DNA of 64,000 nucleotides from an uncultured Gammaproteobacteria bacterium (GCA_963748135.1 CAVVHY010000004.1:1495-65494), one strand, 5' to 3'; shown: positions 37,370 to 47,781, counted from the stretch's first letter. Notes: generated by a model from the sequence alone, not told the origin. Translations and numbers: made by a program.

Positions 37370-37901
37370 AACCTAACGACAGGAAAAAGAAAAAATTATC
37401 CAAGAAAGATAAGGCCCATCGCAAAAGTGCAAATGACCCATGGTTACTTGTGACTTCACATCATCCAGACATGCAAGTGGAAGAAGATAATGGTGATTCA
37501 CCTGCAAAAATTATTATAAAAAAATACCGTAAGAGAATGAAAATCGAGCACGAATTTCGTGATAGCAAAGATCCTCAATGGGGGGTAGGATTATCTTACA
37601 CACGATGCGTGGATCCTGCTCGACTTGAAATACTATTATTAGTTGGGTATCTCGCCATCTTTTTATTATGGTTAATAGGCTTAGCAACGGAATATCAGGG
37701 CAAGCATTATGATTACCAGGCAAATACTGTTAAATCTCATCGCGTGCTTTCGCTTGTTTTTTTGGGAACTCAAGTCCTCTTTCATCATCCTCAACAAATT
37801 ACTATACCGATGCTTACACAAGCATTAACATGGGGAATAGAACATGAATAGGGTTGTCCAAAATTTGGTGGGATCAATTAGGGATTAAGGTGAGGGGGTC
37901 T
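37370..37901 (+). mobile_element. IS4-family (IS10-like) element, 3' part: transposase C-terminus and right terminal IR
   Basis: The frame is open from 37372. ..DPWLLVTSHH..YRKRMKIEHEFRDSKDPQWGVGL.. is the Y-(2)-R-(3)-E-(6)-K signature of IS4-family transposases. The terminal IR ends ..TTAGGGATTAAGGTGAGGGGGTCT at 37901. Confidence 0.8.
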
Positions 37902-38130
37902 ATAAACTTGATTCAGAATCAGGGGTCTCTAAAGAACATTTAATTCACAATCACATATGAATACCAGTCACACTATCTTTTAATACCGGACAACCGACCT
38001 CAAACACACCAACTTATTGATATTTAACAGCTTAAAACCTCTGCCTTAATCTTAAACTAAGCATCAACTGCTATACTTTAAAGAGAATATAAAAATCAAT
38101 GGCTTCATACTTTGTTATGGGTTCTAGTCG

Positions 38131-41100
38131 ATGAGCGATATTGCGCAGCTAATGCAGGCTTACAAAAATGGTGAATATCCATCAGTTGAATTTACTGAGC
38201 ATGGAGTACGTCTATCACGCGGTGACGATGAGAGCAAAGTAGAAGAAATTATCTGGGATGAATTATCTGAAGATGACTTAGAATATGTGCCTTTCTTAAT
38301 TCTGGCGCTAACTAAGTTTTCAACGGCTGAGGAGTCTTACCAGCAAGATCAAGCGATTTGGCAGAATTATATCAAAAGCCTTGTCCGCAGGGCGGCTAAG
38401 AAGGGTTTAGATGAAGTTGGAAAATTACCTATCAGTAATGATTTGTTTCGAAAACATTATAGTCCTAAATTTTTTGAATATTATCTGAATGCCCTCAAAG
38501 AATTAGGTTATGATGCATTGCCAAAATTGTCACTTTCGATGAGATATGATCATAGTCTATATTTTCCGATGGTAATTGAATCATTGCGTAATAATAGCTT
38601 TCCTTTCAAGGAAATTCAGTTAATATTGCACGGCTCTGTACCTGATGAAATTCAAAATTTTATCTCAGGTATTGCAACCCTGGAACACCAGCCAGAGACC
38701 TTGCATTTTTTCGTGGCTGACATTAAAGGCAAAGCTAATTTATTAATGTCTAAGATTGTTGATGAATCAATTGCTAACTCAAAAAGCTTAACCAGCAATA
38801 TTAGACTTGAGGGAGATAACGAAAAATCAGACAGAGTGGTCGGGATACATGAAGATAGCGCCAACAGATTCACTGCTAAAAACCGCGCAAGATTAACGAA
38901 AGCAAACCGATCAAAAAATAGTGAATATTGGCGCGCGAAAATGCGCCGTCCTGCCAAGCCGGTTGTAGATATAGCTTCAGCAGATGAACTAGAACAAGGT
39001 AGTTCAACTAGGGCTGAAGTAAAAGAACCAGATATACAAAAAGCTGAGCCTAAAGAACAAGGTCGGCTGCGTGTGAAAAGATATGGCCTAGTTCGCCAAG
39101 CCAAACGATGGCGTAAACATCAAAAAGGACTGATGAGAAGGCTTGATGTCCATGTCCAGCATAATAAACAAGTCCAGCAACAACAGCAAAAACAAATGCG
39201 ACAAACTATCCAGGTACAACGCCAGCAGGCCAGGGCGCGACAGCGTTTGTTGGAAGTTAAACAGGATCAACAAGTCGAAACGGCTAAAGTAACAGATGTC
39301 AGAGGCGTTGATGTATTAACTCATGATAGTTCCGCTTTAAATAAATACTTCATAGATGATAGCAGTCATTTTTATAATGAGCTTAAAATGCGTCCGAAAT
39401 CTGGATTCGATGAACAGTTATATACAAATCACGATGAAGATAAATGGTTATTGAAGGTATTAGGCGCCCACAGAGCTGATTTCAATACAGGTATCAAATT
39501 TACAGGGTTAACAAAACGTGCTGCCGATCATCTCTATAGCCAGCGGGCACAATACCAGGCTGGACTTGCCTTGGAAAATTTACCCAAAGGATTTGTACTT
39601 GTTAGACAAGCTAAGAATGTTTACCTTGATTATAATCCTGAAAATGCTAATGCAAAGCGTAAGTACAATCCCCTAAGCATTAATAATATATCAACCCTAG
39701 AGCCCGTAGCTGTGCCTGATGGAATTATCGATTTTGAAACTGATGAGTTATATCATTATTTTCGTGACCTTGTTAGTCAAATTAATAAGCGCATTGAAGA
39801 GTTTGAACTGTCAAAAAATGACCGTGAATTTGAACAAAAATATCATAGGCATAACCAAATAAGAGTTATTAAAAATAAGATAAGAGAGTCTGAAATACAA
39901 GAAATGTATTGTGAATTTTATGATGTGATCTTTTTATTAAATGACGCAGAATATTTTGATTATGGGAAAATAGATCGTTACACGATAAGTTCGCTTGAAG
40001 CATTAATGAAAGATTCATCTATGCCGTTAAGATTAAGGACCGTCGATGACGATAAGGTTAAGATACTAAAACAGCAACTACCAGATAGGCTAAGACAAAA
40101 CCTTGCAGCTTTAAAATTGTCACTAATACAGATGCATAGAGATTATGCTTACAATACGGATCCTAAAGGGAGTTATGAACAATACTTACTGAGACAGAGA
40201 TTTTTATATAAAAAGCATTATTTAGAAAATGATGACCCCAGTACTCAAGGAATTTATCACAGTCTGAAGCTAAAGCATCAAGACATGATGAAACATGCTC
40301 GCGAGGATCAGAAGGCTGCAAATAGCTTATTTACAGGAAAGATATGGGAATATAATCTTGTGGGGGCATCTTTGAATCAAGCGCGAATGAGATTAAATGT
40401 ATTAACACGTGCCGCTGCAAATTCACAATCTAAAACGGTTACAAACGAATTTGAAAAGGCAGGATTGTATAGTCGAGCAGATAAAGAAAAATTGAGTCGG
40501 TCTGAAAAAGAAGCTTTGAAGCAGAAGGAAAAGATTGGTGCGTTTGTAAAGGAACGCTACCTTGTAGATCTAGATGAAGATAACAACCCTAGAGATGAGG
40601 AGACACAAATACTATCATCAACAATGCACATCTTTTATCGCCACTTAAATAAAAAACACGGTGATGATGCCAGGAAATTGTTTGCTAACCATAAAAAAAT
40701 ACTGAATCAATTGAGCAATGCTAATCTCAATTCATTGATGCAAGTCTATTATGCGAATGGCTTTGGCGGTGTTGAATATCTCTTAAACCAGTTTTCTGAG
40801 ATCAAGGATTTTGAACATTTTAGACAGACCTTCCTTAATCATTCAATGAACTATAATGAGTTTCTCTATGATGATTTCGAAAAAGATATTGCTTTTGTAA
40901 ACAGCTTAACCGGTGCTGAGCGAAATTGGTGGCAAAAGCTAAGCAGTGATCATTTTGATTCGATTCATATGGGCCAATTAAGAGATTTATTACGTGGTTA
41001 TCGATATTTTCTCGGCCAGGTGAAGAGTATGCACGTTAGAATTGCCAGAAAACTGCGATATCACGTCCAAGTCTCATATGAAGGTAACGCTGCAAAGATT

Positions 41101-45790: not shown

Positions 45791-46423
45791 GTTGGGTTTG
45801 ATGTTTTATTTAGAGACCCCCTCACCTTAATCCCTAACTACTCCCAACAAAATTTGATTAACTATCATGAAGTTATAGAAAAACAGACATGCATGGCGTA
45901 ATATGAACTCATTAAAATCAGTATCAATAACTTAATGGAGAACATAGCCATGCATGCGATCGAATTATTACATACTTTATTAGCTAAGTCAGGTGCCGTA
46001 AAACATGAAACCCGATTAAACAGCTTGTTAAAGAGTGTGACAAGCATCATGCAAGGGGGCAAACTAAGTTTAACGAGTATAGGAAGGCACATGAGCGGAC
46101 AAGCCAAAGTTAAAAATAATATCAAGTCAGCCTATAATTTGTTAACCAATGGTCGCTTACATCATGAGCGTAAATTTATATACCATGCCTTAGCACAATA
46201 TTTATTAGGTGGTAAAAAGCACATTGATATTGTTGTTGATTGGTCGCCTTGCGTGACGCATGCCAATCAAATACTAAAAGCCAGCATTGTATTACGGGGA
46301 CGTTCGATGACGTTATATGAAGAAGTTCACCCTGAACAGAAGTTAGGTAATTACAAAGTGCACCAACGCTTTTTGGAGCGACTGAAATTAATGCTTCCTG
46401 GGGATATCCAAGTAACCATCATG

Positions 46424-47622
46424 TGTGATATTACAAGACAAATGAGACATCGAGCACATAAGAATTAGGCCTATGAGCTTGTGGATAACTGTTCCGCGAC
46501 GATGTCGCTACACAGTTATCCACAGGGCTCACAGGCTCAGCAATAAATCAATCTTCATTAGTCAATATTCTTTTCTTTTAAGTTTTTTACAAGCTTATAA
46601 TAATCATAATTTCTTGGGAGGATGATTTCGTTGCTGTCCCAATAGGCGCCAGTAACTTCACCTTGCATTGGGACTTTTTCTTCTACAGCTAAATACTGCT
46701 CATAGGGTGTTTTACCACGCAGTGATGCATGTGGTCTTTTATAGTTATAATAATGCTCCCACTCAGTTAATAAACCCGAGATATTGAGACTTGGATCTTC
46801 AAGGTTAATTTGACTATAAAATTCGGCTTTGTCAGTTTTTTGTGAACGCTCAACTTTTCCATTTAAATGTGGTGAGCGAGGTTTTATTGGCCGGTATTTA
46901 ATAAAATGAATACTTAATTCCTCTTGAAATAAATTGTTGAAAAATTCAGTTCCCCAATCTGTTTGGATCCGCTGTATTGGAAATGGTAGGTTTTCTAGCA
47001 CCTCATATAAGAATAACACTGTATTTTCAGCATGTTTTGACGAATACAAACGTAATACTCTCATCCTGGTGCAATCGTCAACTGCAGTAAATTGATAGCA
47101 TTTATGTTTTATTTTACACACATCCAGTTGTACTCTATCGCCAGGTGTAGGTCGACTATAGCGCTGAAAATCTTTTTTGGACCTGTATTTTTTAAGAGGC
47201 TTGGCATGGTGCTTGTTAAGCACACGCCAAATAGTGGGTGCAGATAGTTGGATATTATGCTCTCTATCAAGGTGAGTTTGTATTCTTTGAGGTCCAAATT
47301 TAAATTTCTTCCTAACAGATAAGATGAGTTTCTCAATTTCATCAGTGATTTTCTGTTTAGCTAAATGCTTAGGTCTTTGAGGGATATCTAATAAACCAGC
47401 TTCGCCTTGTTCTTCAAAACGCTTTAACCAACGATAAAGTGTTGATCGTGGGATCCCGCAACGTTTAGCAGCCTTACTAACTGAACCTAATTTTTTATAT
47501 GTGGCTATCCAGATCTTTCTTGCTCTCAGTTTTCTTTCTTTTGGTTGCATCATCATTCATTCACCGAAAAATTAGATGCCCTAAGATACTAGAAAATGTA
47601 GCGAATGTCTTGAAACTTCACA
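46424..47622 (-). mobile_element. IS481-family insertion sequence (1199 bp), apparently intact
   Basis: Terminal IRs TGTGATATTACAAGACA.. / TGTGAAGTTTCAAGACA... 7-bp direct repeat CATCATG at 46417-46423 and 47623-47629. Confidence 0.85.
46558..47556 (-). CDS. IS481-family DDE transposase
   Basis: 332 aa with N-terminal HTH (GIPRSTLYRWLKRFEEQG) and an rve core (..IQRIQTDWGTEF..PRSPHLNGKVERSQKT..). Confidence 0.9.
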   Translation of the reverse strand: MMMQPKERKLRARKIWIATYKKLGSVSKAAKRCGIPRSTLYRWLKRFEEQGEAGLLDIPQRPKHLAKQKITDEIEKLILSVRKKFKFGPQRIQTHLDREHNIQLSAPTIWRVLNKHHAKPLKKYRSKKDFQRYSRPTPGDRVQLDVCKIKHKCYQFTAVDDCTRMRVLRLYSSKHAENTVLFLYEVLENLPFPIQRIQTDWGTEFFNNLFQEELSIHFIKYRPIKPRSPHLNGKVERSQKTDKAEFYSQINLEDPSLNISGLLTEWEHYYNYKRPHASLRGKTPYEQYLAVEEKVPMQGEVTGAYWDSNEIILPRNYDYYKLVKNLKEKNID

Positions 47623-47781
47623 CATCATGACAGATGCAGGATTTCGTACGGAATGGTTTGGGCTCATAAAAAAATTGGGGTGGGACTTTGTAGGCCGTGT
47701 TCGTTCTAATATGTTATTTCAAGAAGTTGGCGAAAAAGGCTGGAAATCTTGTCTGTCGGAATATCAGTTTGCCAGGAACAA

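Follow-up and report, generated by a model that had tools for sequence, protein, structure and literature searches.

How does the transposase gene of a single insertion sequence (IS) come to lie on both sides of a giant gene, its end standing before its beginning? This is the question raised by positions 37,370 to 47,781 of a stretch of 64,000 nucleotides (nt) from an uncultured Gammaproteobacteria bacterium (GCA_963748135.1, CAVVHY010000004.1:1495-65494; the whole stretch is here called the window), where a gene with a SecA-type ATPase domain is enclosed by parts of an IS10-like element of the IS4 family, which itself carries an IS481-family element. A preliminary description, made from the sequence alone, saw in this arrangement nested transposons with 24-nt terminal inverted repeats (IRs) pointing towards the cargo, and proposed either an older composite transposon formed by two IS4 copies or an adjacent deletion. 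The answer reached here is that the mobile entity is a larger unit, bounded by two copies of an IS3-family element, in which the IS4 and IS481 elements travel as passengers, the IS4 being dead; that most of the supposed long IR is the arm of a palindromic repeat resembling those known as BoxC or TMECO; and that both IS4 halves would, on balance, probably derive from one repeat-armed IS4 lineage, which was repeated on both sides of the giant gene, tandemly or in circular form.

The unit, of 12,892 bp (36130-49021), lies inside a single gene of 760 codons, and the two IS3 copies that bound it (IS3-A and IS3-B, Table 1) are 100% identical over 1,240 bp and directly repeated, with the 4-bp duplication GATG on both outer sides. 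If the unit is excised together with one GATG, a single open reading frame (ORF) of 760 amino acids (aa) returns, reading ..FRNNIRDTEQKK.. across the join (with the flanks joined through one GATG, the surroundings of the junction can also be written ..ADTFRNNIRDTEQKK..); of the two minus-strand ORFs, 50005..49022 stops at a codon supplied by the IS3 end, and the one that runs down to 34827 keeps the same frame. It is this restoration in frame that gives the GATG duplication its weight. The IS3 element itself is apparently functional, to judge by its sequence: orfA matches HTH_Tnp_1 and orfB matches rve, rve_2 and HTH_21, the transposase reaches 357 bits against NF033516 (cutoff 160), the motif A AAA AAG (A6G), which is the -1 frameshift signal of the IS3 family, stands at IS coordinate 311 within the orfA/orfB overlap, and the terminal IRs TGATGTGTCAACAC.. 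and TGATATGGCTACAC.. (the latter as reverse complement) agree in about 18 of their first 25 positions and have TG..CA ends. Thus, the identical IS3 pair, the flanking GATG, the restored ORF and the functional-looking element together identify the IS3-IS3 unit as the mobile entity. The nesting first described stands to the extent that the IS481 lies in the IS4 and the IS4 is cut by IS3, but what the sequence demonstrates is the insertion of the IS3-IS3 unit, with its 4-bp duplication, into one ORF.

The boundaries of the IS3 are confirmed by a contig assembled independently in the Logan collection from the run ERR11523667 (L051), which consists of exactly the 1,240-bp element from its first to its last base, and the element is therefore a repeat node in the assembly graph of that sample. 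In the 2.2-Mb assembly IS3-A and IS3-B are the only full copies, and the nearest annotated relatives are found on plasmids of Piscirickettsia salmonis, with 68% OrfB identity. As the two copies are identical, the GATG intact and the halves of the ORF undamaged, the insertion of the unit was probably recent. Two IS copies, a passenger between them and one outer duplication are what defines a composite transposon, and all are present here, provided that the order of the contig across both 1.24-kb repeats is correct; the unit would be either such an IS3 composite transposon or a circle of IS3 plus the 10.4-kb passenger whose integration took place at an IS3 copy or through it, and the sequence fits both. 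In a megablast search with the whole unit, plasmids gave no match. A foreign base composition was also considered and dropped, the GC content of the unit being 37-41% and that of the genome 39.6%.

As for the sites that the IS3 has chosen, no shared target motif is evident among its three junctions. Beside junction A, GTAGCC resembles the IS3 end GTAGCCATATCA, a single case that proves nothing. In the intact relatives of the IS4, the sequence to the left of the IS3-A junction (930-950 of the contig L014 described below, against 37355-37378 of the window) reads ..GTGCGTAGCC|AATC and resembles the IS3 end ..AGTGTAGCCATATCA; this resemblance may reflect an IR-like choice of target, as in some IS3 and IS30 elements, or chance.

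Table 1. Positions of the IS3-bounded unit, its contents and its target gene in the window, and of the second IS10-like element in other contigs (prefix C) of the same assembly
Feature	Coordinates	Strand	Remarks
Target gene, downstream (3') half	34827..36129	-	orphan, weak ankyrin-repeat signal; in frame with 49022-50005 (..ADTFRNNI|RDTEQKK..)
Left GATG duplication	36126..36129		sequence
IS3-A, 1,240 bp, intact, IS3 family	36130..37369	-	orfA 37023-37310, orfB 36160-36972, A6G slippery site, TGAT..ATCA ends
IS4 right part, 512 bp (IS coordinates 829-1340)	37370..37881	+	YREK/E part of the transposase; true right end ..AATTAG
Repeat right arm, 25 nt, GGATTAAGGTGAGGGGGTCTATAAA	37882..37906		flanking DNA, BoxC/TMECO-like palindromic repeat
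Passenger: upstream region and giant gene with SecA-type ATPase domain	37907..45808	+	gene 38131-45790; frameshifted in this assembly
Repeat left arm, 25 nt, TTTAGAGACCCCCTCACCTTAATCC	45809..45833		same rare subtype; junction also in the independent Logan contig L054
IS4 left part, 590 bp	45834..46423	+	true left end CTAACTACTCC..; transposase N-terminus to ..VTIM
IS481-family element, 1,199 bp	46424..47622	-	intact 332-aa transposase; CATCATG at 46417-46423 and 47623-47629
IS4 middle piece, 159 bp (IS coordinates 584-742, duplicated CATCATG included)	47623..47781	+	encodes ..TDAGF..QFARN
IS3-B, same sequence and direction as IS3-A	47782..49021	-	Logan contig L051 is exactly these 1,240 bp
Right GATG duplication	49022..49025		sequence
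Target gene, upstream (5') half, 328 codons	49022..50005	-	stop from the IS3 end; Logan contig L052 identical
Second IS10-like element, hits	C5:69608-70926, C5:28983-29824 (partial), C14:96889-98208, C14:98255-99573, C17:37-1355		
Second IS10-like element, further hits	C28:3633-4951, C34:25884-27202, C45:31967-33288, C48:35895-37206		

Within this unit the order is that of the right 512 bp of the IS4, a repeat arm, the giant gene, the mirror arm, and the left 742 bp of the IS4 with the IS481 inside. The inverted match that had been taken for the terminal IRs does hold, 45814-45837 being the reverse complement of 37878-37901 in all 24 positions, and it extends in weaker form to 69 nt at 77%; however, 20 of these 24 nt belong to the repeat arm and not to the IS4, whose true ends are not 45814 and 37901 but 45834 (CTAAC..) and 37881 (..AATTAG). 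Firstly, in a relative with 68% protein identity (L015), a perfect 9-bp duplication, GGTTAGGAG, directly abuts CTAGCTAATCCCC.. and ..GGGGATCACTTAG (CTAG../..CTTAG). Secondly, in the closest full-length relative, the 1,627-bp metagenomic Logan contig L014 (transposase P0001, 402 aa, 85% identical to the joined fragments of the window), in a second relative from a JGI metagenome (L053, 91-96% against the window fragments) and in a relic on contig C30 of the same genome, the similarity to the window ends at the bases equivalent to 45834 and 37881. And finally, the arms are also met with at other places in the genome where no IS4 is present.

The three IS4 fragments are collinear with L014, 45829-46423 corresponding to its positions 115-709 (94.6%), 47623-47781 to 703-861 (96.9%) and 37370-37881 to 948-1459 (95.3%), and thus the pieces on both sides of the cargo, with the IS481 inside them, are parts of one element and not of different IS families. 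Alignment with both full-length relatives, the check that the preliminary description had proposed, gives exactly what is missing: 86 bp, or about 30 codons (862-947 of L014), the same gap being found with L053, which is uninterrupted over the third junction. Once the ends are corrected, the window copy measures 1,254 bp in its three pieces and an intact one 1,340 bp (120-1459 of L014), in place of the sum of 1294 bp set earlier against some 1.33 kb, which had implied a loss of only about 36 bp. The observation that the IS3-proximal breaks do not rejoin is borne out: the inner junctions (..GAACAA|IS3-B and IS3-A|AACCTAACG) show no 3-4-bp duplication, and the frames are offset because 86 is not a multiple of three. 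In the NCBIfam profile transpos_IS4_2, the N-terminal and middle pieces cover 1-160 and the C-terminal piece 196-331; both match NF033591 (144.5 and 123.9 bits), each below the whole-protein cutoff of 152 because the gene is split.

The 7-bp duplication CATCATG around the IS481 is exact and accounts for the 7-bp overlap of the first two IS4 fragments on L014, where a single CATCATG is read through as ..VTIMTDAGF..; removal of the element from the window gives the same reading, just as had been described. The insertion lies one codon before the second catalytic Asp of the IS4 transposase. The element has inverted ends TGTGA..CAAGACA on both sides, its transposase reaches 247.9 bits against NF033577 (cutoff 224) with a match to LZ_Tnp_IS481, and this is its only copy in the assembly. 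It shares with ISVch1 and ISEc18 of the IS481 family the single rve-type transposase with the IS481 leucine zipper, the TGT.. ends and the 7-bp duplication, at about 50% protein identity to the nearest annotated relatives.

The IS10 subgroup of the IS4 family comprises elements of 1,200-1,350 bp with CT ends, 9-bp target repeats and a YREK motif (PMC2266710). The window IS4 resembles them in its intact length and in its ends (CTAACTAC.. and ..CAATTAG, both beginning with CT when read inwards), in the 402-aa transposase of its relative, and in the DDE and Y-(2)-R-(3)-E-(6)-K motifs of the joined fragments (D of ..VVDWSP.., D of ..TDAGF.., YRKRMKIEHEFRDSK), which also match Pfam DDE_Tnp_1. It differs from IS10 in being broken into three pieces with 86 bp gone, and its protein identity is about 37% to enterobacterial IS10-type elements and 44% to a Legionella copy. 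The 9-bp direct duplication is present in L015 and in the other IS10-like element of this genome but absent in the window, where the abutting 9-mers, CCTTAATCC and GGATTAAGG, are inverted; this lack fits recombination between two copies and does not speak against membership in the subgroup. The relic mentioned above (C30:50846-50984) is a 140-bp remnant of a window-type right end, 95% identical, which abuts GGGTGAGGGGGCTTTAAC, a repeat arm of the common subtype; the lineage was therefore once resident in this genome and has otherwise died out. None of the 460 genomes searched from the same class (60 relatives and 400 others) yielded its DNA, relatives in named genomes reach 44% identity or less, and exact-protein look-ups of several ORFs of the cargo and the IS4 returned nothing.

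The repeat to which the arms belong forms a family in this genome: paired elements number 37, with lengths of 41-445 bp that peak at about 190 bp, and each type of end occurs about 75 times. Its core, CCCTCTCCCCC-TT-GGGGGAGAGGG-GA-GGGTGAGGG, resembles the BoxC/TMECO consensus (PMC4666352), and the family is a putative relative of the Escherichia coli elements, to which its resemblance is good: with the published pattern, CCCTCNCCC N3-6 GGGNGAGGG N3 GGGNGAGGG (PMC4666352), 5 strict and 59 relaxed matches are obtained, the second loop having mostly 2 nt. The arms of the window retain only the outer G-block and the loop (..GGATTAAGGTGAGGGGG..) and differ from each other at one base (TTTAGAG and TTTATAG); both carry the rare variant CACCTTAATCC, for which only about three further loci were counted; its exact form recurs only at C18:224992 and C5:71092, and C43 and C27 have forms close to it. 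Two other interpretations of these sequences were tried and set aside. As IRs of Tn3 type, the arms have their GGGG and TAAG parts wrongly oriented, and a TA duplication around the palindromic repeat, in the manner of IS630, could not be called, the flanks being themselves palindromic. An isolated second repeat tip, GGGGTCTCTAAA, lies at 37907-37933, fifteen bases past the arm and preceded by a small palindrome, GATTCAGAATC; it may be what is left of a further repeat copy, at the border upstream of the giant gene.

A second IS10-like element of the same genome (1,319 bp, ends CTAAGTGAT..ATCACTTAG, 43% protein identity to the window IS4) makes clear how an IS can come to stand between such arms. 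Of its nine hits, which have 97-100% identity, one is partial, and eight abut the same arm of the BoxC/TMECO-like repeat. Five copies (on C5, C17, C34 and C45, and the first of the C14 pair, this with one mismatch) have the 9-bp duplication CCCTCACCC or CCCCCTCAC. At C14:96889-99573 two direct copies stand in both arms of one short repeat, and at C28:3633-4951 one copy stands alone between inverted arms, without a direct duplication, a state expected as the product of recombination between a pair such as that of C14. Thus, arm-IS-arm is a normal state in this genome, shown at C28 with its precursor at C14. This second element is regarded as active. A survey of TMECO motifs reported that it had met with no remnants of transposases beside them (PMC4666352).

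With these elements it is possible to return to the history of the locus. Because the 9-mers that abut the two IS4 halves are inverted (CCTTAATCC|IS4..IS4|GGATTAAGG), the halves are not the two sides of one simple insertion; a single simple insertion of the IS4 on a circle had been dropped for the same reason, and was taken up again in modified form after the evidence of recombination at C28 and C14. Three observations argue for the common descent of the halves: (i) both arms are of the rare CACCTTAATCC subtype; (ii) in both the cut lies at the mirror-equivalent 9-mer, whereas the C30 relic shows that this IS4 can also use GGGTGAGGG; (iii) and finally, both halves carry the IS3 in the same orientation, with junctions that lie 86 bp apart in IS4 coordinates. 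We therefore incline, with some reserve, to the view that both came from one IS4 with its repeat arms. This armed IS4 (arm-IS4-arm) would have come to lie on both sides of the giant gene, as a direct or tandem repeat of the armed IS4 and the gene or as the circle formed from such a repeat by recombination. The IS3 would have occupied two positions in the IS4 separated by 86 bp, through two nearby insertions, or through one insertion and a deletion adjacent to it, and transposition or integration by the IS3 ends would finally have removed a single, exact period of the repeat. The permuted look of the IS4 and its missing 86 bp would both follow from one period having been lifted out in this way. 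The older idea of an IS4 composite around the giant gene is thus retained in one respect, as an IS4 once present on both sides fits best, and abandoned in the other, there being no sign that an IS4 composite ever transposed.

Processes of this kind are known. An IS2-like composite with direct copies gives rise to circles of IS and passenger that re-insert next to a resident IS (PMC6350997), and the networks of IS dimers and cointegrates join the ends of two IS copies with loss of the DNA between them (PMC9333248). The unit described here shares with the IS2-like megacircle of Burkholderia thailandensis E264 (PMC6350997) the direct IS3-family pair, the passenger and the short duplication around the whole, and in the megacircle and IS-dimer systems this structure is interconvertible with one IS and a circle, through the transposase or by homologous recombination; in the pathways of IS30, IS3, IS150 and IS911 (PMC9333248), too, the DNA between near IS copies is lost on joining of the ends. 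The megacircle measures about 210 kb, whereas the present unit has 12.9 kb and is known from its sequence, in one copy. The architecture is not that of Tn10, as the IS4 parts on the two sides of the cargo are oriented directly here and not inverted.

Several points weigh against this account. The 49 contigs of the assembly contain no donor locus, no second copy of the giant gene and, the C30 relic apart, neither an intact IS4 nor the missing 86 bp (the preliminary description had proposed to look for intact copies and for the giant gene without IS flanks), and consequently the repeated or circular precursor is one that we infer entirely; an absent donor copy, in any case, means little when the assembly is only 55% complete by marker genes. 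No native context was found either: there were no relatives of the cargo among the genome contigs searched, nor any of its last ORF, and the target gene has no homologue besides itself among 5.8 billion proteins, so that no uninterrupted allele could be shown. A 4-bp duplication, taken alone, would occur by chance in one case in 256. The 10.4-kb passenger has no recognisable replication or partition gene, so that a free circle would be transient and a stable plasmid unlikely. Finally, the order across the exact repeats is provisional, as the independent short-read contigs break at the IS3 ends, L051 having exactly 1,240 bp and L052 stopping 30 nt into the IS3.

The first alternative, literally the one that the preliminary description named first, is that two separate IS4 copies inserted into different repeats flanking the giant gene, that each was then hit independently by an IS3, and that classical composite transposition followed. 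This is mechanistically the simplest course, with standard events only and neither circle nor duplication, and the IS4 clade does seek out such sites, homing to the TTA loop or G-blocks of BoxC/TMECO-type repeats (GGATTAAGG in the window, GGTTAGGAG in L015, GGGTTAGGG in L053, GGGTGAGGG on C30), as the second IS10-like element does in eight of its nine copies; the repeats, moreover, are common, about one per 40 kb, and the two arms of the window differ from each other at one base. Nevertheless, both flanking repeats would need to be of the rare subtype, the IS4 would need to have cut in at the mirror-identical 9-mer though other sites were usable, and two IS3 hits in the same orientation would need to fall within 86 bp in a genome with no other IS3. 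Common descent from one armed IS4 calls for none of these coincidences. Independent insertion is thus less likely than common descent, and we regard it as an unlikely origin, if one still to be reckoned with.

The second alternative attributes the arrangement to the assembly: a single chromosomal IS3 would lie in the target gene, and the 11,652 bp of IS3 and passenger would be, or would also be, a separate circle threaded into the contig, in which the IS4 would be unpermuted, with one IS3 inside it, no duplication and 86 bp lost. Both layouts are compatible with a de Bruijn graph made of a single 1,240-bp repeat node and a single loop, and the contigs of ERR11523667 break at the IS3 ends as is expected for either; IS2-like composites release such circles (PMC6350997), and an IS without duplication and with a small adjacent loss is the usual sign of recombination between nearby copies. 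Against this, a passenger devoid of replication and partition genes could not be maintained as a plasmid, the delivered contig runs on without a break, and in the circle, too, the giant gene would have to be joined to both outer arms of one repeat, which requires the same history. For these reasons an assembly loop appears improbable. That the 24-29-nt match is the true IR of a long-IR IS4, with the ~190-bp repeats as its deletion derivatives (miniature inverted-repeat transposable elements, MITEs), is hardly credible at all, for even if the match is perfect over 24 nt, adjoins the IS4 on both sides, and MITEs normally have ends in common with their parent, the interior of the repeats has no similarity to the IS4 ends, L014, L015, L053 and the C30 relic lack the 25 nt (L015 having its 9-bp duplication right at the CT.. 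ends), the same arms harbour an IS10-like element unrelated to it, with ordinary 9-bp duplications, and the repeat resembles the BoxC/TMECO consensus, which is found in bacteria without this IS (PMC4666352).

The locus is an ordinary pile-up of selfish DNA, an IS3 pair and its contents within one gene, and not a new kind of system; its IS3, IS4 and IS481 elements are new members of known families. For annotation this means that no new type of element lies behind the apparent permuted transposase and its long IRs. The giant gene came to its place beside a conjugative-transfer module as the passenger of the IS3 pair, and the insertion destroyed a gene of 760 codons. The most useful by-products are the corrected ends of the IS4 and the targeting of BoxC/TMECO-type repeats by IS10-like elements: two elements of the IS10 group repeatedly insert at fixed positions in these palindromes, and recombination between such copies yields an IS with inverted arms and no duplication, which can be mistaken for a long IR. 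Insertion at a fixed site of a structured extragenic palindrome is likewise known from the IS that target repetitive extragenic palindromic (REP) sequences, namely IS1397 and ISKpn1, IS621, ISPpu9 and ISPpu10 of the IS110 family, and ISRm22 of the IS4 family (PMC1525189); here the target is a G-block motif of BoxC/TMECO type and not a classical REP. A bolder conjecture, in our opinion rather doubtful, is that the IS3 forms a live translocatable unit, an 11.65-kb circle of IS3 and giant gene which leaves and re-enters beside an IS3, as the megacircle of B. thailandensis does, and that, separately, the homing of IS10-like elements of this lineage to BoxC/TMECO repeats of triplex type leads, after recombination, to repeat-armed chimeras that could spread as units. 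Were this true, the enigmatic BoxC/TMECO repeats would have their first link to mobile DNA.

There remains the independent contig L054 (4,865 bp, Logan, ERR11523667), which covers 42743-47622 and contains the same junctions between cargo, arm and IS4 and between IS4 and IS481. Its differences from the window amount to 92 substitutions, of which 62 are transitions, and 26 indels; almost all fall in 42743-44870, and from 44870 to 47622 there are three substitutions only. In it one open frame takes up the final 1,010 codons of the giant gene, with clear matches to SecA_DEAD and P-loop_SecA (E about 1e-14), so that the apparent decay of the gene in the window would be specific to this allele or a problem of assembly. 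At its position 4752 (47509 of the window) a C-to-T change puts a stop in place of a Trp codon close to the beginning of the IS481 transposase; the copy in the window is intact. The contig ends exactly at the last base of the IS481, which suggests that in the sample a second sequence context follows that end.

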